64,000 nt of DNA. It comes from Gammaproteobacteria bacterium. GTDB lineage: Bacteria; Pseudomonadota; Gammaproteobacteria; Burkholderiales; Rhodocyclaceae. A program made the position numbers and the translations under genes. The stretch lies in the NCBI GenBank assembly GCA_018819515.1, contig JAHJPX010000003.1, forward strand, positions 56,588-120,587. The letters run 5' to 3'. The notes under the pieces are model-generated. The model made no database searches. It saw only the letters and a list, made by a program, of their open reading frames with translations, and had not been told where the DNA came from. Shown here piece after piece: positions 5,005 to 62,898 of the stretch (positions are counted from its first letter, which is position 1; each line of letters starts with the position of its first letter).

Positions 5005-7311
<2,307 letters not shown>

Positions 7312-9809: not shown

Positions 9810-11054
9810 ATGCGTGTATTGGTTCTCGGTGGCGGTCTGGTCGGCGTTGCCTCGGCATGGTACCTGAGCGGGGATGGCCACGAAGTGGCCGTGGTCGATC
9901 GTCAGCCCGGCGTCGCGCTGGAGACGAGCTTCGCCAACGGTGGCCAGATTTCGACCAGCCATGCCGAGCCGTGGGCGAATCCCGGCGCGCCCTGGCTGGC
10001 GCTGCGCTCGCTGGGGCGCGAGGATTCGCCCTTGTTGTGGCGGATGCGCGCCGATCCGGCGCAACTGGTCTGGGGGCTGCGCTTCCTGCGCGAGTGTACG
10101 CCCGGCCGCACGCGGGACAACACCATCGCCATCCTGCGCCTCGCCCTGTACAGCCGGGCGCTGCTGAAGGAACTTCGCGCCTCGCTTGCCCTGGAATACG
10201 ACCAGCAGCCGCGCGGCATCCTGCATTTCTATACCGATCCGGCGGAGTTCGAGCGCGCCGTTCCGCAGGCGGAACTGATGCGCCAATACGGCTGCGAGCG
10301 CGTGATGAAAACGGCGGCCGAATGTCTGGCCATCGAGCCGGCGCTGGCTCGATCGAGCGTTCCCATCGTCGGTGGCACCTACACGGCGGACGACGAATCG
10401 GGCGATGCGCACAAGTTCGTGCAGGCGCTGGCCGAACACGGGAGGGCGCGCGGCGTGGCATTCCGCTTCGGCGCCGGCATCGCGGCGCTGCTGCGGGAGG
10501 GCGATCGCATCGCTGGCGTTCGCTTGGACAATGGCGAGACGCTGACGGCGGACGTCTACGTCGTCGCGCTCGGCAGCTACTCGCCGCTGCTGCTGAAACC
10601 GCTTGGCTTGCGGATTCCCGTCTTTCCGGTGAAGGGCTACTCGGCCACGTTTCCGCTGACGGCCGACAGCATCGCGCCCGTGGTGAGCCTGACCGACGAC
10701 GGCCACAAGATCGTTTTGTCGCGGCTTGGTGATCGCCTGCGCGTGGCCGGCACGGCCGAGTTCACGGGCTACGATACGTCGTTGAACGACGTGCGTTGCC
10801 AGGCGCTGGTGCGCCGGACGCGGGCGATATTTCCGGAATTGAAAAGCGGCGAACCGGAGCTCTGGACCGGCCTGCGGCCATCGACGCCGAGCAACGTGCC
10901 GCTGATCGGCGGCACCCGGCTATCGAATCTCTATCTCAACACGGGCCACGGCACGCTGGGCTGGACCATGGCCTGCGGTACGGGCAGGCTGCTCGCCGAC
11001 CTGCTGTCCGGCCGGGCGCCGGACATCGATCCCTCGGCGTACCGCCACGGCTGA
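9810..11054 (+). CDS. dadA: D-amino acid dehydrogenase small subunit
   Basis: 414-aa [25 protein letters not shown] fold, and NTGHGTLGW near the C-terminus. The last 5 codons and the TGA stop lie inside a 24-nt motif copy. Confidence 0.85.
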
Positions 11055-11059: not shown

Positions 11060-12233
11060 AGTGCAGGTGGCGGGGTGCGGCCTCGGCCTGCTCTTCGGGC
11101 AATTCGGCGTGGCTCGGTTCGCCTTCCGGGTTCGGGTAGAGCGGCGCGCCGCAATCGTCGCAGTACTCGATCGGGAAGCGATGGTCGAGCACGAGAATCT
11201 CGCGCAGGCCGGCTTCGCGCAGGACGGCCTCGATCTGCGCGGGCATGTCGGCGGCTTCGTCCTCGGCTTCGAGCAGGGGCCAGACGACGCCATGTATCAC
11301 GTCGCTCGATTCGCTGAGCGTAAAGCCGATGCGGAACTCTTCGAGCTGCCGATCGTGATAGGGCGCCAGCACGGCGCGCAAGTCGCTGGCGGCGACGTTG
11401 AGCGTCGTCTGCAGGAAGGCGACCGCCGCCCGCAGCGAGTAGGGGCGCGAGGCGCGGTCGGCGTCGCGGGCCGCGGCGTGGTAGGGCTGCGGCAGCAGCA
11501 ATTCCATGGCGCACGCCGGCAACAGCGGCCTGATAGCCTCGCCGCCCTGGCCGCGCCATTGCTTCAGCACCTCGATTCGCGAGCCGTCGTCCTCCTGCCA
11601 GCGGAACAGTGGTTCGCCGCGTGGTGCCGCTACGGCGCCGATCAGGTAGCGGGTGTCCGAGAGAAAGGCCGTCGTCTCTGCCAGGCTGCTCGCGTCGAGG
11701 TGGACATTCTTGCCATGCAGTGCGGCCTTGGCCAGCCGATCGGTGAGCTGCGTGGTTTCCGAATAGCTCTTCGGCAGCTGGTCCGGACTCCATAGATAGT
11801 CGGTCAGGCCAATTTTCGTTTCGGCGGCGAAGACGTGCGCCTGCAACTGCACGCGCAGGGTGTCGAGATGTGCGGGCGCGATCGGGCCGGAGGGAATGCC
11901 GAAACGCGACCACGCCAGAAGCGGTGCCGCGAAAAGCACGATGTCCTGCGGTGTCGCGGTATCGGGCCGGCGCGTTTCGCAACAGGCCTCGATCATGTCG
12001 GCGAGTTCGTCGTAGCTGCGATCGCTCACACCGTAGAGGTAGTCCAGCGTACCGTTGAGCGTGGCGTCGTCGCCGCCGGCCAGCAGCCGGTCGACCGCCG
12101 TCGCCAGTCGCTTCTGCCAGAATTCGTCTTCGATGCGGCAGGAGGATTGCGAGAGTTGGCCGGCGAGCTTCGCCAGTTCCTCGGTCGCGGGGTTGTGCTT
12201 GGTGCGGCGGGAATATCGATTGCGTTTCGTCAT
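11058..12233 (-). CDS. Conserved hypothetical protein (DUF2863-like)
   Basis: 391-aa ORF with normal codon bias. The family call is from memory of betaproteobacterial DUF2863 proteins (basic N-terminus, C-terminal CxxC). Weakly supported. Confidence 0.4.
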   Translation of the reverse strand: MTKRNRYSRRTKHNPATEELAKLAGQLSQSSCRIEDEFWQKRLATAVDRLLAGGDDATLNGTLDYLYGVSDRSYDELADMIEACCETRRPDTATPQDIVLFAAPLLAWSRFGIPSGPIAPAHLDTLRVQLQAHVFAAETKIGLTDYLWSPDQLPKSYSETTQLTDRLAKAALHGKNVHLDASSLAETTAFLSDTRYLIGAVAAPRGEPLFRWQEDDGSRIEVLKQWRGQGGEAIRPLLPACAMELLLPQPYHAAARDADRASRPYSLRAAVAFLQTTLNVAASDLRAVLAPYHDRQLEEFRIGFTLSESSDVIHGVVWPLLEAEDEAADMPAQIEAVLREAGLREILVLDHRFPIEYCDDCGAPLYPNPEGEPSHAELPEEQAEAAPRHLH

Positions 12234-13001: not shown

Positions 13002-14009
13002 ATGTCGGGAACCGAAATCAGTTTCACCGCGGTTGTCGTGCTGGTCATGCTGGCGCTTGCCTTCGATTTCATGAACGGCTTCCACGATGCCGCCAACTCC
13101 ATCGCCACCGTCGTTTCCACAGGCGTCCTGAAGCCCCATCAGGCCGTCGCATGGGCGGCCTTTTTCAACGTGCTGGCCGTGGCCGTGTTTCAGTTGAAAG
13201 TGGCGACCACCATCGGCAAGGGCACCATCGATCCCTCCATCGTCGATCATTACGTCATTTTCGGCGCCCTGATCGGGGCCATCGTCTGGAACTTCATTAC
13301 CTGGTACTACGGCATCCCGTCGAGCTCGTCGCATGCGCTGGTCGGCGGCCTGGTCGGCGCCGCGCTGGCCAAGTCGGGCACCGGCGCCATGATCTGGGCC
13401 GGTATCGGCAAGACGGTTCTGTTCATCTTCGTCGCGCCGCTGCTTGGCTTCACGCTTGGCTCGCTGCTGATGGTGCTGGTGGCCTGGATCTGTAACCGGA
13501 CGACGCCGCGCAAGGTGGACAAGGTGTTCCGCCGCCTGCAACTGACCTCTGCCGCGCTGTACAGCCTCGGCCACGGCGGCAACGACGCGCAGAAGACCAT
13601 CGGCATCATCTGGATGCTGCTGATCGCCGCCGGCATTTCGCACTCGAACGAGAGCGTCCCGACCTGGGTGATCGCGTCCTGCTACATCGCCATGGGTCTC
13701 GGCACAATGTTCGGCGGCTGGCGCATCGTCAAGACGATGGGCCAGAAAATCACCAAGCTGAAGCCGGTCGGCGGTTTTGCCGCCGAGACGGGCGGCGCCA
13801 TCACGCTGTTCATGGCGACCGGCCTGGGCATTCCGGTTTCGACCACACACACGATCACCGGCTCGATCGTCGGCGTCGGCTCCACGCGCGGCGCGCGCAA
13901 CGTGCGCTGGGGCGTGGCGGGTGGTATCGTCTGGGCGTGGGTGCTGACCATTCCCGTGACCGCGCTGATATCCGCCATCGCCTGGTGGCTCGGGCAGACG
14001 CTTCTGTAA
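13002..14009 (+). CDS. pit: Inorganic phosphate transporter, PiT family
   Basis: 335-aa polytopic ORF with duplicated GxxDAxNxIAT / GHGGNDAQK signatures. Confidence 0.9.
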   Translation: MSGTEISFTAVVVLVMLALAFDFMNGFHDAANSIATVVSTGVLKPHQAVAWAAFFNVLAVAVFQLKVATTIGKGTIDPSIVDHYVIFGALIGAIVWNFITWYYGIPSSSSHALVGGLVGAALAKSGTGAMIWAGIGKTVLFIFVAPLLGFTLGSLLMVLVAWICNRTTPRKVDKVFRRLQLTSAALYSLGHGGNDAQKTIGIIWMLLIAAGISHSNESVPTWVIASCYIAMGLGTMFGGWRIVKTMGQKITKLKPVGGFAAETGGAITLFMATGLGIPVSTTHTITGSIVGVGSTRGARNVRWGVAGGIVWAWVLTIPVTALISAIAWWLGQTLL

Positions 14010-15992: not shown

Positions 15993-16008
15993 CTGTATAA
16001 GAATACAG
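15993..16008 (+). promoter_or_regulatory. LexA operator (SOS box) CTGTATAAGAATACAG
   Basis: Perfect CTGT-N8-ACAG palindrome 21 nt upstream of the lexA ATG. Confidence 0.85.
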
Positions 16009-16028
16009 GTATCGACAAGGAGACAGGC

Positions 16029-16628
16029 ATGGCCGACAACCTCACCCCCCGCCAGCAGGAAATTCTCGACTTCATCCGCAACTCGCTGGAAGTGCTGGGC
16101 GCGCCGCCGACGCGTACGGAGATTTGCAGCGCGTTCGGCTTCGCTTCGCCCAACGCGGCAGAGGACCACCTGCGGGCGCTGGCCAAGAAGGGCGTGATCG
16201 TTCTCGAGCCCGGCTCGGCGCGCGGCATCCGCCTGGTCGAACAGCTCGGCCTGCCGCTGATCGGCTCGGTGGCGGCGGGCAGCCCGCTGCTGGCGGTGGA
16301 GAACCAGCTCGGCAAGGTGCAGGTCAATCCCAACCTCTTTTCGCCGCGCGCCGACTACCTGCTCAGGGTGCGCGGCAACAGCATGGTCGATGCCGGCATC
16401 CTCGACGGCGATTTGCTGGCCGTGCACAAGACCGGCGAGGCGCGCTCCGGCCAGGTGGTGGTGGCGCGGCTGGACGACGAGGTGACGGTGAAGCGTTTGA
16501 AACGCACCGGCCGGCGCATCGAATTGCTGCCGGAAAATTCCGACTACGAACCGATCGCCGTCGAGGGCCACGAGTTCGCCATCGAGGGCCTCGCCGTCGG
16601 GCTGATCCGCGGCGGCAAGCCGCTATGA
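16029..16628 (+). CDS. lexA: LexA repressor
   Basis: 199-aa ORF. N-terminal [12 protein letters not shown] wHTH, AAG cleavage site, and S24 peptidase block ([21 protein letters not shown]). Confidence 0.95.
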
Positions 16629-54719: not shown

Positions 54720-55082
54720 ATGGCCCTCGTCACCTTTTCCAGTCCTTTGCACAAGGACAAGACCGTCTATGCCGTTTCCGGCAGCCACAAGCAGACCATC
54801 CTGCAAATCGCCAAGGACAACCACATCCCCATCGACTTTTCCTGCGGCGACGGCGAGTGCGGTACCTGCCTGGTCAAGGTCAAGGTGATCGACAAGAACA
54901 AGCCGCGCCTGGCCAACCCGCTCAACGAGCGCGAGCAAAAGGTGCTGAAGGAGATGGGCAAGGTCACCCAGGCCGAACTCGACAAGATGCAGGTCGACGA
55001 TTTCGCGCCCAACGAGTGGCGCCTTGCCTGCCAAATGGTCATCCGCGATGAGGACATCCTCGTCGAGTATCCGAGCCGCTGA
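54720..55082 (+). CDS. 2Fe-2S ferredoxin
   Basis: 120-aa ORF with CGDGECGTC...C cluster ligands. Confidence 0.8.
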   Translation: MALVTFSSPLHKDKTVYAVSGSHKQTILQIAKDNHIPIDFSCGDGECGTCLVKVKVIDKNKPRLANPLNEREQKVLKEMGKVTQAELDKMQVDDFAPNEWRLACQMVIRDEDILVEYPSR

Positions 55083-55962
55083 GTTAGCCGAAAGGGCCGA
55101 GGCGGCCTATCTCGGCCTGGCGCTGGGCGACGCGCTGGGCGCCACGGTCGAGTTCATGACGCCGCGGGAGATTCGTGCCCAGTACGGCGTCCACAACGAG
55201 ATCCGCGGTGGCGGCTGGCTGCGCCTGAAACCGGGCGCCGTTACCGACGATACGACCATGAGCCTCGCGCTCGGCGAAGCCATCCTTGCCGATGGCGGTC
55301 GCGTCGAGCCGCTTTCCTGCGCGCGCGCCTTCGATGCCTGGATGCGTGCCAAGCCCGTGGACATCGGCAATACCGTGCGCCGAAATCTTGTCGCTTTCCG
55401 CCGCAGCGGCGAGCCCGTGGCGCCGCCTTCCGAGCACGATGCCGGCAACGGCGCCGCGATGCGCGTGCTGCCGGTGGCGCTGGCGACGCTGGGGCAGGGC
55501 GACGATGTCGTACGCACCGCCGTGCGCGCGCAAGCGCATGTGACGCACAACAATCCCGATTCCGACGCGGCCACCGAATTCCTCGCGCTGGCCGTGCAGG
55601 ACGCAATCGGCGGCGAGAATCTGCGCGGTGTTTATCGGCGGCGCATCCGTCCCATTGTCGACGACAAACCGGCCTTCGCCTACCGCGGCCGCCGGCGCGA
55701 GAATCCGAGTGGCTGGATCGTCGAAACGATGCAGGCCGTGCTACAGGCGCTGCTCGACACGGACAGCTTCGAGGATTGCCTCGTCGACGTCGTCAATCGC
55801 GGCGGCGACGCCGACACCACCGGCGCCATCGCCGGCATGCTCGCCGGCGCGCTCTACGGCCGCGACGCGCTCCCCGCCCGCTGGCTCAAGGCGCTTGACC
55901 CGAAGATGCGCGAGGCCTGTGCTGCGCAGGCGCGGAAACTGGTGGCGCTGACTTCCGCTTGA
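55048..55962 (+). CDS. draG: ADP-ribosyl-[dinitrogen reductase] glycohydrolase
   Basis: Internal Met of track ORF 55024..55962. Has GLALGDALGATVEF, VTDDTTMSL and GGDADTTGAIAGMLAGALYG (ADP-ribosylglycohydrolase family). Last gene of the nifB operon, with a 35-nt overlap on the preceding gene. Confidence 0.8.
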   Translation: MRTSSSSIRAAELAERAEAAYLGLALGDALGATVEFMTPREIRAQYGVHNEIRGGGWLRLKPGAVTDDTTMSLALGEAILADGGRVEPLSCARAFDAWMRAKPVDIGNTVRRNLVAFRRSGEPVAPPSEHDAGNGAAMRVLPVALATLGQGDDVVRTAVRAQAHVTHNNPDSDAATEFLALAVQDAIGGENLRGVYRRRIRPIVDDKPAFAYRGRRRENPSGWIVETMQAVLQALLDTDSFEDCLVDVVNRGGDADTTGAIAGMLAGALYGRDALPARWLKALDPKMREACAAQARKLVALTSA

Positions 55963-55969
55963 ATCAGGT

Positions 55970-55993
55970 GGCGTATCGCCACGGTTGACTTTT
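55970..55993 (+). repeat. 24-nt motif copy, 2 mismatches
   Basis: GGCGTATCGCCACGGTTGACTTTT. Intergenic, 8 nt after the draG stop. Confidence 0.85.
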
Positions 55994-56104
55994 CTTGCTT
56001 GGTTACAATGGCCATGTCATTATCAAGCTCAGCGAGACCTAGGGCTCTTGTCTACTACCACGCTCATTCTCGTTTCGAAAATCTAATATTGGGAAGCTAA
56101 CTAA

Positions 56105-56515
56105 ATGCCACGCAACCCGGAGCTATTCGAACTTACCGCTGGATTGGCAATGGCTCAGCTATACGAGAAATTTCCCATCCCAAAGGACATTGATTTTCGC
56201 GCCCTATACGCCGAGGTATCAGATCGATTCCCTGATGCATCGATGTCGGACTACATCAAGATCTACTTGGTTATACGACACACCTTCGAATGGTTGCAAA
56301 AGGAGGATTTCATTCGCTATGAAAGTATTGGCGAAAACGCAGCGCGCAATTTGCAGCTTACGGAAAAGGGGCTAAGAGCTCTTAAAGCGGTACCGAAAGA
56401 GCTTGATGCACAAAGACAGTCTTTGGCCGAGTTCCTTGTGGAATCCGCAAAGGAAGGGGCTAAGGAGGCCCTAATGAAGGGTGTTGGTTGGCTTCTGGCG
56501 GCTTCCGCAAGCTAG
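56105..56515 (+). CDS. Hypothetical protein (visibly lower G+C)
   Basis: 136-aa ORF, helical-looking, no recognised motif. Flanked by 24-nt motif copies. Confidence 0.5.
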   Translation: MPRNPELFELTAGLAMAQLYEKFPIPKDIDFRALYAEVSDRFPDASMSDYIKIYLVIRHTFEWLQKEDFIRYESIGENAARNLQLTEKGLRALKAVPKELDAQRQSLAEFLVESAKEGAKEALMKGVGWLLAASAS

Positions 56516-56568
56516 TGGTGGCTAATAGCGGGTAGTCGGAAGTAGACAGCGATTCCCGATGTGAGGGT

Positions 56569-56592
56569 GGCGTACCACCACGGCTGACTTTT
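56569..56592 (+). repeat. 24-nt motif copy, 1 mismatch
   Basis: GGCGTACCACCACGGCTGACTTTT. Intergenic, followed by a short hemerythrin-tail relic. Confidence 0.9.
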
Positions 56593-56691
56593 TCCAGTTC
56601 CCCTGCGCCTTGAGCCGCGTTCGCTTATGCTTGCGCAGTTGGAGTTCGATCTGAATGAGCGGCGGCGACAGGTGCAGGTTGGTCGGGAGGA

Positions 56692-57111
56692 ATGTTCATG
56701 AACGCCAAAATGGTGAGGTCGTACGGAGCACGGCTATTGATCGTAGTGGCGGCATTGGCAGGCATGGCCTGCGGCAGGCAGGAACATTCAACGGGCAGTG
56801 CGAAATCCGGGGTCGCCTCGAGTCAACCCGAATACGCGGGGGTGGACGACGCGTCGGGGGACCGGATGTATGTCGTGAAGGATACGATCGACGGCGTGTT
56901 CGCGTTCCGGGACCGATGCCGGGAACTCTGCAAGGGCGAAGATACGTTCTTGGTCTGGAATGACAACGAAAATCACATATGTCGCTGCCCGGATCAGGGG
57001 AAACGGTATCTCCTGAAAATGATGGAAAGCGAGCGCATGACCATGTCGGAGAAGGAATTTCGCGAGGCAATCCGGAAAAGCATTCGGGAAAGGACAAGGC
57101 CCGCGAATTGA
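56692..57111 (+). CDS. Hypothetical secreted protein / possible lipoprotein
   Basis: 139-aa ORF with a signal-like N-terminus (LLIVVAALAGMAC) and four further Cys. The start may be a downstream Met. Confidence 0.5.
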   Translation: MFMNAKMVRSYGARLLIVVAALAGMACGRQEHSTGSAKSGVASSQPEYAGVDDASGDRMYVVKDTIDGVFAFRDRCRELCKGEDTFLVWNDNENHICRCPDQGKRYLLKMMESERMTMSEKEFREAIRKSIRERTRPAN

Positions 57112-57175
57112 GGGGTTGTCGGAGACGGCCGTTACTCCGAGCCATCGGCGACGGACCGCGTTCTCCGCCCAGGGT

Positions 57176-57199
57176 GGCGTCCCGCGACGGCTGACTTTT
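57176..57199 (+). repeat. 24-nt motif copy, 2 mismatches
   Basis: GGCGTCCCGCGACGGCTGACTTTT. Intergenic, followed 25 nt later by the hemerythrin 3' remnant. Confidence 0.85.
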
Positions 57200-57224
57200 C
57201 TACGTCGGCGCCAGCCGCCGCTTA

Positions 57225-57400
57225 CTACTTCCCCTGTGCCTTGAGCCGTGCAGTCAGCGCGCTGTCCATGGTGGTTAGGCGCGTCTTGAACCAGTCGGGC
57301 AGGCTGGCAGCGACGTAGGCGCGGCAGATCATGGCGAGTTCGCCGAGGATGCGCTGGTGGTTGCTTTCGTGTTCGCCGATAGCGGGGAAGCGGCAGCACT
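57225..57400 (-). pseudogene. 3' remnant of a hemerythrin-like gene
   Basis: The minus strand reads in frame CRFPAIGEHESNHQRILGELAMICRAYVAASLPDWFKTRLTTMDSALTARLKAQGK*. This parallels the last 70 codons of the intact gene at 58335-58724, but with a 13-codon internal deletion and no start. Confidence 0.8.
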
Positions 57401-57525
57401 CTTATGCCCACTGCCTTTCTCCGGTACAGTTCGAACAGCAGTACTTCAGCGGACTCGACCAGTGTCTGCCGGAGCCGGCAATCTCTGCCCCCCGTTTTCT
57501 TACATTCGATGCTCGCGGGAACGCA

Positions 57526-58338
57526 ATGTTGCTCCGTAGCCTGACCTCAGTCGCCATCGCCATGTACGCCGCATGCAGCGTCGCCGATGCGCCGATGGCA
57601 GCCGTGGTGATCAACCGGAACCACAGCCACCAGCTCACCTCCTGGAGTGGGCCGTATTTCCCGAGTTTTCCAAAGGGTACGATGCCGCGGGACGGAACCT
57701 GGCTGGCGCTTTACTGCGACGATGCGGGCTGCGAGGTGAGAGAGGCCGCCGTGGCCGTGATGGGCGGCACGATTGCCAACTGTGACGACCGGGAGCAATA
57801 CGCCGAAACCATCTTTGCCGGCGGCGAGCCGGTTGCTGTGTTCAACAGCGTGAATCTTCCACTCGGGAAGGTTGCGACCGCACTGCTGGCCAGGAAGGCG
57901 CCGGCCGCATCCTCGCAATTCGAGGACTTCAGGACGGTGGGCGTCTGGTACGTGCTGTTCAACGGCAAGTACCTGGGCATTTCCTGGGTTCGCATGGTGT
58001 CTCCGCATTCACCGGACGAGTATCTGTACCGATACCATCTCGTCGATGGCGCGACGAAGCAGTTCATCTTCTCCTCCACCGGTGGCAGGGCGGAGGCGGC
58101 CGGCGGTGCCGTTGCGCCATTCGTGCATTGGGCCGGCGATCTGGACCAGGACGGCAAGGTCGACCTGCTGGTGGAAATCCCGTACAGCCTGGATCACGGG
58201 ACGAATGCGCGGTGCCAGGTTTCCCACCGGCTCTACTTGTCATCTTTGGCGCAGGCGCAGGAAGTTCTCCACAAGGCCGCGCAGACTTCCGGGCAGCAGC
58301 CGGCGTGTGCCTGTCGACTCGGTCGAGGCGGCCGCTAG
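57526..58338 (+). CDS. Hypothetical secreted protein
   Basis: Internal Met (MLLRSLTSVAIAMYAACSVADA signal-like) of track ORF 57331..58338. Has a DLDQDGKVDLL calcium/FG-GAP-like motif. The first 65 codons of the track ORF run antisense through the hemerythrin remnant, so they were excluded. Confidence 0.5.
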   Translation: MLLRSLTSVAIAMYAACSVADAPMAAVVINRNHSHQLTSWSGPYFPSFPKGTMPRDGTWLALYCDDAGCEVREAAVAVMGGTIANCDDREQYAETIFAGGEPVAVFNSVNLPLGKVATALLARKAPAASSQFEDFRTVGVWYVLFNGKYLGISWVRMVSPHSPDEYLYRYHLVDGATKQFIFSSTGGRAEAAGGAVAPFVHWAGDLDQDGKVDLLVEIPYSLDHGTNARCQVSHRLYLSSLAQAQEVLHKAAQTSGQQPACACRLGRGGR

Positions 58339-58724
58339 GTACCCTGCGCCTTCAGCCGCGCCGCCAGCGCGCTGTCCATGGTGGCGAGGTGCGTCTTGAA
58401 CCAGTCGGGCAGGCCGACGGCGACGTAGGCGCGGGCGAGGCCGAGGCGACCCTTGGCGACGCCGCGGCCGATCTGGGCGAGTTCGCCGAGGATGCGCTGG
58501 TGGTCACTTTCGTGTTCGCCGATGGCGGGAAAGCGACAGGCACGCATCAGGCGGCCTTCGTTTTCGAAGTGGGCGCGGGTGTGCAGGGCGAGCGCGTGAA
58601 AGCGGCGCGGGAAGTCCTCGTCGCTGGCCTTGGTGAGAGCCGCGAGTTCATGTACGAAGTCTTCGTGGGTAGCGTCCATGTCGGCGACGCCGACGGCGTG
58701 CAGTTCGGGTTTCCAGTTCAGCAT
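58335..58724 (-). CDS. Hemerythrin-like (HHE cation-binding) protein
   Basis: Internal Met (MLNWKPELHAVGVADMDATHEDFVHEL..HTRAHFENE..EHESDHQRIL..WFKTHLATMD) of track ORF 58335..59615. 7-nt overlap with the upstream SIR2-like gene. Confidence 0.8.
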   Translation of the reverse strand: MLNWKPELHAVGVADMDATHEDFVHELAALTKASDEDFPRRFHALALHTRAHFENEGRLMRACRFPAIGEHESDHQRILGELAQIGRGVAKGRLGLARAYVAVGLPDWFKTHLATMDSALAARLKAQGT

Positions 58725-59581
58725 GTCACGGCCTCCGAAGTTTCCACACTTGCGCCCATCAACTCGCTGACGTTGCCCGCGACGATCTCGATGCCCATCT
58801 TGGCCAGAAAGCGCTTTTCCTTGTCGGTCGGTTGCTCGATCAGCGCCCAGCCGGTGGGGCCGGTGGCGGCGCCGTAGACGATGTCGGACATGACCATGCG
58901 CTCGCTGTCGCGGTTGAAGCGCATGCCGAGGAAGAGGTAGCGCTTGTCGCGGCGCAGTTCCTTGACGTAGGCGGGCACGGCGAAGCCGCCCATGAGTTCC
59001 GTGATGTAGTCGACGTAGTCGGCGTCGGAGGCGATGTAGGTCGACTCCGGCCTGGGCGAACCCATGGGCTTGAACAGCAGTGGCAGGCCGAGGGCGGCCT
59101 GGCCGGGCAGGATGGCGGTGTAGTGCGCGCCGTCCCAAGCGAACAGCTTGAAACGGAAGTCGGTGCCGCCGAGACGCGCGCAGCCGAGCACCAGGGTGTG
59201 CGGCACGTCGGCGTAGGAATCGAGCAACTGCGTGTCGCGGTTGATGTCGATGACGTAGGCGGGCTTGATGGACTTCAGCCAGTCGTGCACGGCGCTGCGC
59301 GTCCAGGGTGCGTTGTAGGTGGCGTCGAGGAACTTCGTTACCGCCGAACGGCCGCGCTTGAGTTCGATGTTCATCGCCGCTCGCGGGAATTCGTACATCA
59401 GTTTGGGCGACATCGGCTTGCCCCCGTTCATGGCAAGGATTAGTTCGTCGCTGGTGGCGGGCATCGGGGCGCCGGTTTCGGTGTGGCGGACATCGGCCAG
59501 CACGCCGGGGCCGAGATAGGGAACGACGCTGCCGTCGGCGAGGCCGGCGAGCAGGTCCTGACGGGTTTTTGTAGTAATCAT
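58718..59581 (-). CDS. SIR2-like (SIR2_2-type) domain protein, catalytic His apparently absent
   Basis: 287-aa ORF. The motif order PYLGPGV / VIDINRDTQLLDSY / LLFKPMGS / SDADYVDYI / YLFLGMRFNRD parallels the FLGAG / TTNYD / KLHGS / DY / LFLGYS blocks of SIR2_2 proteins as I remember them. Not verified by search. Confidence 0.45.
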   Translation of the reverse strand: MITTKTRQDLLAGLADGSVVPYLGPGVLADVRHTETGAPMPATSDELILAMNGGKPMSPKLMYEFPRAAMNIELKRGRSAVTKFLDATYNAPWTRSAVHDWLKSIKPAYVIDINRDTQLLDSYADVPHTLVLGCARLGGTDFRFKLFAWDGAHYTAILPGQAALGLPLLFKPMGSPRPESTYIASDADYVDYITELMGGFAVPAYVKELRRDKRYLFLGMRFNRDSERMVMSDIVYGAATGPTGWALIEQPTDKEKRFLAKMGIEIVAGNVSELMGASVETSEAVTC

Positions 59582-61701: not shown

Positions 61702-61809
61702 CGGACGGCTGAGCAATCCTTGCCATCCAGCGAGTGTCGGAATGTCGCTAAACCAGTTCAGTTGGGCCGCAATTGCTGGAACTTCAACTTCATCGAACTG
61801 GAGGGATTT

Positions 61810-62337
61810 ATGGCGCTGTCGAAGGAAGCAGTCGTGCTCTACACAGCTGTTGTTGCCTTGCTTACCGGTATTGTCGGGCTTGTCGCCAGCGTAATGAATG
61901 CCATAAGGACTCAAGAATATGCGCAAACCATCAATGCGACCGCAGCTACTGTCGAGGAGATCAAGAACTGTCGCGGTCAAGTGGCCGTGAGAATCGACAG
62001 TCCCAGCCCCGTCGATTCTGAAGTGGAGCAAGTATCTGAAAGAGTGAATGTGCAGGGTGAAGGCACCGTACACCAAACCTGTCACTATGTCCTCTTGCTT
62101 GTGCATGACGTGTCAGTACCTGGTCGCCCATGGACCATTTCTGATTTGGTTCAGATAAACACGACCGGCAGATGGGCCGGCATTGCGCAATTGCATGACG
62201 TTCTGATTGGAGGTTTGGCGGAAATCGATGCTCGCGTCGTAGCTCAGCCTTCAGAATTTCCCGTTGGAAACAGCTATCCCTATCCGATCGAGGCGGGCGT
62301 GCGTTCCAACATAGTTCGAGTGAGGAGAATCAATTGA
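61810..62337 (+). CDS. Hypothetical membrane-anchored protein (lower G+C)
   Basis: Internal Met of track ORF 61720..62337 with GGAGGGA 5 nt upstream. N-terminal TM helix (VVLYTAVVALLTGIVGLVASV). Confidence 0.55.
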   Translation: MALSKEAVVLYTAVVALLTGIVGLVASVMNAIRTQEYAQTINATAATVEEIKNCRGQVAVRIDSPSPVDSEVEQVSERVNVQGEGTVHQTCHYVLLLVHDVSVPGRPWTISDLVQINTTGRWAGIAQLHDVLIGGLAEIDARVVAQPSEFPVGNSYPYPIEAGVRSNIVRVRRIN

Positions 62338-62759
62338 GTGCATTGATCAAGAAGTTCTTCATCTTCTTTCTGATTTGCTTGCCGACAAGTGTCTTTGCCG
62401 GTTCGTTTGTGATCACAATAGACAAGATCGTCGCTGGCAAGCAAATAACCGGACACATTCAGGGCCTGGCTCCCCAGGCGGCGTCCAAGTACAAGGTGCT
62501 AGTCTACGTGCACACCGACCGATGGTATATCCATCCCTACGCCGGACAGGGCGAGGAGAGAACATGGGCATCGGTCAAGGAAGACGGGTCTTGGCAAGTA
62601 CAAACAGTTCAGCGTGAATTTCGCGCTGACAGCGTCGCAGCGCTTCTTGTATTGAGGAGCGTTCCAGAACCCAACAGAGTCGAGAGCCTTACCAATATCC
62701 CGTACCAGGCGGCGATTACGAAGGTTCTTCAAGGAACACCGGATTACGGGAAGCTGTAG
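62334..62759 (+). CDS. Hypothetical secreted protein (lower G+C)
   Basis: 141-aa ORF with a TTG start overlapping the upstream TGA and GAGGAG 6 nt upstream. Signal peptide FFIFFLICLPTSVFAG. Confidence 0.55.
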   Translation: MSALIKKFFIFFLICLPTSVFAGSFVITIDKIVAGKQITGHIQGLAPQAASKYKVLVYVHTDRWYIHPYAGQGEERTWASVKEDGSWQVQTVQREFRADSVAALLVLRSVPEPNRVESLTNIPYQAAITKVLQGTPDYGKL

Positions 62760-62871
62760 GGCGAGCTCGCAATCACCCGGGTGAATGTAGTGAGGCTTTT
62801 TGACAGGGCGACCTGTTCGCCGTCGTTTTTTGATGGCACTTCGCGTTCGCCGTTGCGGTTGGTGTTGCGGG

Positions 62872-62895
62872 AAAAGTCAGCCGTGGCGGTGCGCT
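62872..62895 (-). repeat. 24-nt motif copy, inverted, 2 mismatches
   Basis: The plus strand reads AAAAGTCAGCCGTGGCGGTGCGCT. Intergenic, 3 nt beyond the MFS stop codon. Confidence 0.85.
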
Positions 62896-62898
62896 GCC

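Follow-up and report, generated by a model that had tools for sequence, protein, structure and literature searches.

How a row of single genes came to stand between two genes that overlap in close relatives is the question raised by the draG locus of a 64,000-nucleotide stretch from a Rhodocyclaceae metagenome-assembled genome (MAG; GCA_018819515.1, contig JAHJPX010000003.1), here called the window. Between draG and a convergent hemerythrin-like gene lay an array of three open reading frames (ORFs), orf136, orf139 and orf270 (array locus tags KJ634_00500, KJ634_00505 and KJ634_00510), together with two partial copies of the hemerythrin 3' end, called relics below, and three copies of a 24-27-nt motif, M. 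On balance, we favour the reading that these 2.4 kb are a lineage-specific accessory islet that arose from at least three separate insertions with target duplication into an overlapping tail-to-tail junction. An original prediction, made from the letters of this DNA, had located the three motif copies, the two relics and the three ORFs, and our positions agreed with it. The features of the array and its flanks are as follows.

55048 to 55962, plus strand: draG (ADP-ribosylglycohydrolase; Pfam PF03747, E 1.7e-63; start codon uncertain), the left conserved flank
55967 to 55993, plus strand: M1, motif copy GGTGGCGTATCGCCACGGTTGACTTTT, left 27-nt direct repeat around the orf136 block
55994 to 56565, plus strand: orf136 insert, 572 nt, 46-50% G+C, holding orf136 (56105-56515)
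56566 to 56592, plus strand: M2, motif copy, right repeat of orf136 and left end of the M-plus-hemerythrin-end repeat around orf139
56599 to 56620, minus strand: short hemerythrin 3'-end relic, TTCCCCTGCGCCTTGAGCCGCG on the plus strand
56698 to 57111, plus strand: orf139, 137 amino acids (start of the Prokaryotic Genome Annotation Pipeline; ORF open from 56692), putative lipoprotein
57173 to 57199, plus strand: M3, motif copy, separated from the long relic by a 25-nt spacer
57225 to 57400, minus strand: long hemerythrin relic, left copy of the roughly 200-nt target duplication around orf270
57401 to 58338, plus strand: orf270 segment, a 125-nt leader and orf270 (57526-58338)
58335 to 58724, minus strand: intact hemerythrin-like gene (Pfam PF01814, NCBIfam hemerythrin models), the right conserved flank and source of the relics
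58718 to 59581, minus strand: SIR2_2-domain gene (Pfam PF13289), in an operon with the hemerythrin gene

The ancestral state of the junction was read from relatives. A DraG scan of species-representative genomes gave 80 loci, all Rhodocyclaceae-like, the best at 85% amino acid identity, and L091, L092 and L093 came in addition from metagenomes scanned with the hemerythrin protein (83-88% identity; loci carry our L numbers). draG and the hemerythrin gene overlapped tail to tail with nothing between them in L001, L021, L091, L092 and L093, and the overlap of their 3' ends measured about 23-75 nt in the last three. L001, with a draG product 85% identical in amino acids to that of the window, aligned on both sides of the array and lacked 55950-58344. 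No tblastn match to orf136, orf139 or orf270 was seen in any of the 80 draG loci, where draG was commonly convergent with a hemerythrin-SIR2_2 pair or with SIR2_2 alone and SIR2_2 adjoined draG in 48. Because draG and hemerythrin overlap in the closest relatives, the 2.4 kb between them in the window are a derived insertion.

The relics recorded where the insertions took place. The long relic aligned with hemerythrin positions 58338-58543 at 156 of 179 identities (87%) with one clean 33-nt gap; it comprised the last 57 hemerythrin codons plus the stop, in frame and with an 11-codon deletion, reading ..CRFPAIGEHESNHQRILGELAMICRAYVAASLPDWFKTRLTTMDSALTARLKAQGK up to the stop. It was closer to the resident gene (86-87%) than to the hemerythrin genes of L081 (80-82%) and L001 (74-80%), which indicates derivation from this gene lineage; an origin from a distant paralogue was rejected on the same ground. 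The short relic matched the hemerythrin end at 18 of 19 positions, a score reached by 0 of 3000 shuffles. With this score and the 87% alignment, chance similarity, which the original prediction had named as a way in which its reading of the relics could fail, was set aside. Its claim that the two relics resemble each other more than they resemble the intact gene held in direction (20 of 22 positions against 18-19 of 22), on a difference of 3-4 bases only. One of the differences between relics and intact gene was a window-specific change in the intact gene, as L081 hemerythrin has the relic base.

Further details tied the relics to the compact junction. The short relic includes the TGA that serves as the draG stop in compact relatives. 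The string GCGCCTTGAG was present in both relics and in the overlap of L092, where it holds the draG stop, and L091 carries the near-identical GGGCCTTGAG at this position of its overlapping junction. Each relic consisted of 3' sequence without any 5' part and had a sharp inner breakpoint. There was no further copy of the hemerythrin end elsewhere in the window, and a draG remnant was looked for near M2 and M3 and not found, unlike in L070 (see below).

The only other genome found to hold these genes was L081 (GCA_050287865.1), reached through an orf270 protein 84% identical to that of the window. Its order was the draG end, one M, the short relic, an orf139 orthologue, about 30 nt of the long relic, two hexapeptide-transferase genes ending in M, an orf270 orthologue and hemerythrin. 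The short relic was kept at the orthologous place, and the retained 30 nt were the inner end of the long relic with an identical breakpoint; M3 and most of the long relic were deleted. The orf136 block, which in the window spans 599 bp including one M between M1 and M2, was absent, and a single M stood at the orthologous empty site. Since L081 shares orf139, orf270 and the relics, these pre-date the split of the two lineages, and since it lacks the orf136 block and has a different extra block, more than one insertion event occurred. The orf136 insert is probably the most recent event.

These comparisons had been proposed with the original prediction, and they bore it out on several points: individual blocks were polymorphic in L081, compact relatives were empty at the junction it had described as a site of repeated insertion, and G+C per block set the orf136 block (46-50%) apart from the window overall (64%). 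The orf136 stretch was the only strongly low-G+C one in this part of the window. Blocks 2 and 3, those of orf139 and orf270, were independently confirmed by L081.

The motif copies lay at the joints of the blocks. M1, M2 and M3 were zero-mismatch copies on the plus strand, at 55967, 56566 and 57173; M1 and M2 flanked orf136 exactly, and the repeat around orf139 began at M. M2 and M3 shared the 5' flank AGGGTGGCGT, and all three shared AGG(G)TGGCGT beyond the core. Because of these shared flanks, and because M2 and M3 run into homologous relic, the copies derive from one another and are not independent arrivals. M followed the stop codons of draG, orf136 and orf139 at 4, 50 and 61 nt, so the earlier description of each block as starting with the motif fits, and equally fits one in which each gene is followed by it. 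The draG 3' end itself (55936-55962, CTGGTGGCGCTGACTTCC) resembled both ends of the motif (GGTGGCG...CTGACTT) minus the central 11 nt, which may be coincidence or a microhomology that attracted the first motif-bearing insertion.

Apart from M, the ends of the blocks had no sequence in common. Pairwise comparison of block leaders and tails revealed no other shared sequence and no pair scoring above shuffles; no attC-type site was found, the only element shared among blocks being the 27-nt M with its stem of 4-6 bp. Scans of the ORFs against Pfam, NCBIfam, PADLOC and PHROGs gave no Pfam, NCBIfam or PADLOC family in orf136, orf139 or orf270 and no mobility family in any of the four collections. 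No integrase domain was present in the ORFs scanned from 52.9 to 62.9 kb, nor any recombinase in or next to the array, and a gathering-threshold Rfam search and a tRNA scan over the whole window returned no family and no tRNA. As first read, the array was without integrase or attC site; it had no tRNA either.

The structures can be accounted for by recombination within shared stretches. On the reading we favour, each incoming segment would have measured 0.6-1.1 kb and carried one accessory gene with a copy of junction sequence at its downstream end. The stretch shared with the recipient would have differed between events: about 200 nt of the hemerythrin 3' end for orf270, M plus spacer and at least 22 nt for orf139, and M alone for orf136. 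Recombination inside this stretch would insert the segment and leave the stretch on both sides, either through break repair copying across it or through a single crossover in which the intermediate is circular or looped. Host recombination functions would be used, and no recombinase would travel with the cargo. The copy joined to the rest of hemerythrin would keep the gene intact and the other would decay into a relic. The part of M here may have been that of portable homology, or of a point at which DNA preferentially breaks or is joined, and not that of a dedicated cassette site. The DNA probably entered by natural transformation or phage.

A single-crossover topology reproduced all three structures, with joints at 55993/55994, 56620/56621 and 57400/57401, and copying break repair would give the same result. 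The comparisons show the compact ancestral junction, the duplications, the polymorphism of the blocks, the lack of mobility genes and the spread of M through the genome. We infer what form the intermediate took, how the DNA entered, which of the orf139 and orf270 events came first and whether M had an active role. The original prediction had each insertion duplicate an anchor made of the hemerythrin end and an adjacent motif. A duplicated anchor was seen for each event; its composition varied, being M alone for orf136 and hemerythrin without M for orf270. Because draG and hemerythrin overlapped, a non-duplicative insertion would truncate one of them, and only duplicative events would leave both functional. 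Selection alone can explain why only duplicative events appear at this site.

Several points weigh against this account. The crossover model was deduced from topology, and no donor, circle or same-strain sibling with an empty site was observed. The 27 nt of M are short for RecA-dependent recombination, and the orf136 event may therefore need a different mechanism. Joints fell at the edge of M in three cases, which hints at something more specific than generic homology. The orf139 repeat was broken by indels (a 5-nt against a 25-nt spacer), leaving its original extent uncertain. The long relic was slightly closer to the window gene (86-87%) than a duplication before the split from L081 suggests, and gene conversion or chance is needed to explain this. 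The polarity of orf136 (gain in the window or loss in L081) and that of the hexapeptide block (gain in L081 or loss in the window) were judged from G+C and parsimony only, and the orf136 block is known from a single MAG assembly only.

Insertions of the same kind were seen at this locus in other genomes. In L070 (Accumulibacter sp. UW18), a 5.2-kb histidine kinase/response regulator insert at the draG/SIR2_2 junction was flanked by a 267-nt duplication (10774-11040; 16006-16235) spanning the draG and SIR2_2 ends. The 3' relic of draG adjoined the intact SIR2_2 gene, and that of SIR2_2 stood at the opposite end of the insert. In L030, a TacA/TacT (GNAT) toxin-antitoxin pair was flanked by a 505-nt duplication at 97% identity (11448-11952; 13186-13691), which covered the SIR2_2 5' end and upstream region and had a motif copy inside the repeat. 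Neither insert contained an integrase or recombinase, and M was not at the insertion boundaries in either genome. L070 and L030 are independent examples of duplicative insertion at the same locus. In about one third of the relatives with SIR2_2 or hemerythrin, draG was separated from the convergent gene by 1-9 kb of unrelated DNA (L004, L016, L017, L023, L024, L027, L033, L037, L043, L047, L050-L052, L054, L075 and L080). Given these spacers, the draG junction is a recurrent insertion hot spot across the family.

The array matches a class described as insertion with long target duplication (Nobusato et al. 2000, Gene 259:99; Furuta, Abe and Kobayashi 2010, NAR 38:2428, PMC2853133), whose mechanism is unresolved. 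Members of the class are small gene units between long, variable direct repeats that are single-copy at the empty site, and they carry no transposase or integrase (PMC2853133). Insert G+C is often deviant, and the repeats can overlap the 3' end of a flanking gene (PMC2853133). Published cases come mostly from naturally competent species and have so far held restriction-modification genes, with a repeat threshold of 30 bp (PMC2853133). As in the class, relatives without the insert exist (L001 and L091-L093 without the 2.4 kb, L081 without orf136), and searches of Pfam, NCBIfam, PHROGs and PADLOC gave no mobility gene.

The likeness was graded for repeat length and target. For orf270 the duplication was well above 30 bp, at 176-200 nt against a single hemerythrin end in L001 and L091; for orf139 it was about 50-78 nt and interrupted by indels; for orf136 it was 27 nt, below the 30-bp threshold. 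The hemerythrin end as target was single in the 64-kb window, and M was dispersed in 14-17 copies. Unlike the published class, three events were nested at one junction, one of them a 27-nt duplication of a multi-copy repeat, and the duplicated segments were old and diverged (87%), not near-identical. As the cargo here is not restriction-modification, an explanation by restriction-enzyme double-strand breaks is not directly applicable.

M was found far beyond the array. The pattern GGTGGCGTNYCRCSACGGYTGACTTTT had 14 matches in the window, with 0 expected from shuffles, and 17 copies were found when up to 5 mismatches were allowed, about one per 4-4.5 kb. Copies outside the array lay at 5090, 5516, 11033, 14465, 15942, 18875, 21377, 32653, 39047, 40085, 47256, 51862 and 62872. 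Orientation favoured the plus strand, which is the G-rich strand, at 13:3. At least nine copies lay within Pfam-supported genes, mostly in inter-domain linkers or termini and in both orientations. The genes were those for Tex (two copies, antisense), a DAO oxidoreductase (in which M supplies the stop codon), an EamA transporter, a DnaE-like polymerase (two copies), a PpiC-type isomerase, an Rnf-Nqr family membrane subunit, RnfG, NifA (before the helix-turn-helix) and NifB. M was enriched in non-coding DNA, and many intergenic copies stood in sense orientation 0-60 nt past a stop codon where there is no insertion joint.

Variants of M recurred in related genomes. An exact search for the motif tail in the loci of the 80 relatives gave 0 matches; strict lineage specificity was then withdrawn, as a fuzzy search found dialects. 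The dialects gCCGTCCCGCCAGCGCCGACTTTT, GCCGTCCCGCCGGCGCTGACTTTT and GGCGTGCCGCCACGGATGACTTTT recurred at similar density in other Rhodocyclaceae-like genomes (L003, L021, L023, L025, L030, L037, L039, L044, L045, L047, L052, L074, L084, L087, L090, L099 and L100), and no motif dialects were seen in the other genera of the set. The NifB linker held the motif in sense (HRRPASADFS) or antisense (QKSALAGR) orientation, in 1-3 copies according to genus, and the window's M copy is present in NifB of L001, without indel and with two mismatches. DraT has conserved RLTL codons that agree with the motif tail from the outset, and the window lineage extended the match to 21/24. These alignments suggest that M in NifB and DraT arose through change of existing linker codons, not by discrete insertion. 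A hairpin was formed only by the window dialect (-9.6 kcal/mol against -3.2 in another dialect). Identity with REP elements or BIMEs (repetitive extragenic palindromic sequences and their mosaic arrays) failed, since copies lie inside genes and the hairpin is not conserved. By analogy, the properties of M resemble those of DNA uptake sequences more closely than those of REP elements, terminators or att sites. A literature search on the motif strings, and on uptake sequences in genera of the Rhodocyclaceae, returned nothing relevant, and M is apparently an undescribed 24-27-nt repeat family with lineage dialects.

M also stood at joints outside the array. A second relic-at-motif joint was found downstream of a major facilitator superfamily (MFS) gene.

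62780 to 62898, minus strand: MFS stop codon, then M (62898 to 62872), then an internal draT fragment

The draT fragment ran for about 90-110 nt and matched draT of L081 at 78% over 111 nt (blastn, E 9e-19). In the draT genes of L081, L091 and L093, an M-like string encodes (V)P(P/S)RLTLYRG in the alignment; in L081, draT is intact and the MFS gene is not followed by M. Beside the fragment, the window had 1.1 kb of low-G+C DNA (61703-62780) with small ORFs at about 61810-62337 and 62334-62759 (the latter with a signal peptide), in place of which L081 has fn3 and pectate-lyase-like genes. M also bordered orf270 homologues in L081, L087, L099 and L100/L101 and lay directly after the draG stop in L033, L074 and L037. 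Against a role for M, the roughly 200 nt of hemerythrin duplicated in the orf270 event did not include M, and M has a general preference for the first bases past stop codons. M would thus be portable homology or a preferred joint and not a requirement for duplicative insertion. The link between the 24-mer and gene acquisition that had been proposed at the outset stood as a positional association, at several joints including the second locus at 62780-62898, from which a causal role may at most be surmised.

Among the alternatives, one would make M an attachment site for a trans-acting tyrosine, serine, HUH or IS110-like recombinase, with gene-plus-M modules integrating at a resident M and the relics incidental; we regard this as unlikely. 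The M on each side of the orf136 block with a single M at the L081 empty site agrees with it, as do the copies after draG, orf136, orf139, the L081 hexapeptide block and the MFS gene, the MFS/draT joint within or at the edge of M, the M-bordered orf270 homologues of the four contexts named above, and the copies directly past draG stops in L033, L074 and L037. A density of about one M per 4.5 kb, with at least nine copies inside conserved genes, is unlike known att sites, however, and M entered NifB and DraT by codon change, not insertion. The orf270 event duplicated hemerythrin without M, the L070 and L030 insertions had no M at their boundaries, the hairpin was confined to the window dialect, and neither the array nor the genes beside it included a recombinase. 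With M also inside Tex, NifA, NifB and other genes, the idea of a cassette-specific site, which the original prediction had left room for, was not sustained.

The converse alternative, to which we give similarly little credence, is that M has no insertion role, being an uptake-like or 3'-end element that accumulates in unconstrained DNA, that it stands at block borders only through its preference for the bases just past stop codons, and that the relics come from unrelated duplicative insertions. It draws on the many intergenic copies 0-60 nt past stops at non-joint loci, on the general enrichment of M in non-coding DNA, and on the duplicative insertions of L070 and L030 without M at their borders. 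It has to contend with the shared flanks of M1-M3 and the continuation of M2 and M3 into relic homology, and with a draT relic that starts exactly at M. A lineage-specific, G+C-rich 27-mer 50 nt past a foreign gene of 47% G+C would also be hard to reach through point mutation. At the other extreme, M could be an unrecognised Rhodocyclaceae-like signal that is uptake-like, in abundance, dialects and spread into protein linkers, and is also the point where incoming DNA is cut, protected or joined, in effect a distributed, recombinase-free docking site for gene-plus-M modules. This proposal is speculative and improbable as it stands; if true, the draG array, the MFS/draT joint and the M-bordered roaming copies of orf270 would be products of one process.

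Homology-facilitated illegitimate recombination (HFIR) during natural transformation, in which a linear fragment is anchored on one side by hemerythrin or M homology and joined illegitimately on the other, was judged less probable still. The absence of mobility genes, cargo that is foreign or roaming, and the several properties that M shares with DNA uptake sequences are compatible with it, and published cases of long target duplication are enriched in naturally competent species (PMC2853133). The anchor, however, was duplicated in every event here. In HFIR the joint reportedly lies beyond the foreign tail, with recipient DNA deleted or replaced and the anchor not duplicated. One-sided anchoring of a linear fragment, which the original prediction had envisaged as homology-anchored integration, is said to delete or replace recipient DNA, and that part of the prediction was corrected.

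Descent of the whole arrangement from an ancestral locus, in which genes stood between tandem hemerythrin paralogues and which decayed here and was lost wholly in relatives, is close to refuted. In its favour are the age of the relics, their preserved frame and the origin of part of the long one before the L081 split. Against it, the nearest outgroups (83-88% hemerythrin identity) have overlapping ends with no spacer, orf136, orf139 and orf270 have no match in the 80 draG loci, orf136 is of low G+C and phage-related, and the relics are sharp-edged 3' fragments without 5' parts. Vertical ancestry, which had been set out at the start as the finding that would overturn repeated insertion, is accordingly very unlikely, with L001 and L091-L093 showing the overlapping junction without the genes.

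The array comes close to several other known systems. It resembles the minimal mobile elements of Neisseria in its site between conserved genes, in whole-gene cassettes that differ by genome and in the lack of mobility genes. Those elements are reportedly defined without flanking duplications. They are assumed to spread when DNA taken up by transformation recombines homologously through its flanks, and their lineage has many uptake-like repeats. Here, relics and motif copies mark each event. Like integron cassettes, the array is a row of promoter-poor single genes in one orientation with a short conserved element after each. attC sites are imperfect inverted repeats of 57-141 nt with R and L boxes, whereas M is a 27-nt element with a 4-6-bp stem. 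There was also no intI in the ORFs scanned from 52.9 to 62.9 kb and no attI, the same element occurred inside housekeeping genes, and one L081 insertion lay mid-array.

M taken by itself is like the DNA uptake sequences (DUS) of Neisseriaceae and the uptake signal sequences (USS) of Pasteurellaceae in its high copy number, its positions in coding linkers and intergenic DNA, often just after genes, its lineage dialects, and the formation of new copies from improvement of pre-existing similar sequence. Extrapolated from one window (14-17 copies in 64 kb), its copy number would reach the hundreds to thousands per genome typical of DUS. M differs from DUS in its length (24-27 nt against a 10-12-nt core) and its 13:3 orientation. 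To our knowledge, location at recombination joints, as seen for M, is not a property of DUS or USS. Genomic islands that tyrosine integrases place in gene 3' ends share with the array an intact target on one side, a displaced partial 3' copy on the other, and direct repeats. Unlike them, the array, L070 and L030 have no integrase, repeats range from 27 to 505 nt, and inserts from 0.6 to 5 kb.

Insertion with long target duplication has been catalogued for more than 20 years, almost only for restriction-modification genes. This locus extends the signature to accessory genes (secreted ORFs, a phage moron-like gene, a toxin-antitoxin pair and a two-component system), and the signature recurs at one junction, independently in three genomes. 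It offers a selective reason, in that overlapping convergent genes tolerate only duplicative insertions, and a candidate sequence, M, at several joints. The locus is also well delimited and small enough for PCR, which suits it to work on circular intermediates and on dependence on RecA and on the motif. With its dialects, M may be the first family of uptake-sequence-like repeats to be reported from outside Neisseriaceae and Pasteurellaceae; if so, it would bear on how gene flow is channelled in the environmentally important nitrogen-fixing and phosphate-accumulating Rhodocyclaceae.

The three cargo genes differed in origin. The original prediction had called the segments foreign; foreign origin was clear only for orf136, with its low G+C and phage family, while orf139 was an ORFan of the clade and orf270 a member of a roaming family in Rhodocyclaceae-like genomes. 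orf136 matched phrog_2266 (function unknown; E 1.2e-25) and had only 3 relatives among 5.8 billion proteins, and distant relatives lie near the genome ends of P2-like phages. Two further orf136 contexts, L082 and L083, were one low-G+C islet without the motif and were uninformative. orf139 had two members in the protein collection, those of the window and L081. With dN/dS against L081 of 0.26 for orf139 and 0.39 for orf270, both are real, intact genes under purifying selection. Read by eye, their N-termini look like signal or lipoprotein peptides. A PDB sequence search with orf136 and orf270 returned no significant match.

The orf270 protein was secreted- or lipoprotein-like, with a DxDxDGK motif, 28 homologues and no Pfam family. 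Members of the family were spread over at least 7 unrelated gene contexts, mostly with a convergent gene as the next one downstream, and the C-terminus was conserved throughout. dS of orf270 against L081 was 0.19, below the 0.47-0.74 of neighbouring genes, which hints at more recent exchange; sliding identity gave a modest plateau of about 90% around it against 80-88% elsewhere, without sharp borders. A decayed draG end plus M hidden in the orf270 3' end was considered and rejected, the codons for HKAAQTSGxQPACxC being conserved across the family in unrelated contexts. The orf270 TAG stop overlaps the hemerythrin stop within the palindrome CTAG. This overlap recurred in the four closest orf270 contexts (window, L081, L084 and L087; convergent partners hemerythrin, a 719-amino-acid protein and a GGDEF protein) and was rejected as an insertion rule, being absent in L088, L090, L099 and L100.

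In many Rhodocyclaceae nif regions, draT, SIR2_2 and hemerythrin formed a compact co-oriented unit convergent with draG (L091 1166-3324; L093 5116-8381). The NAD-dependent SIR2-like enzyme and the O2/NO-binding hemerythrin may be functionally linked to the DraT/DraG nitrogenase switch.

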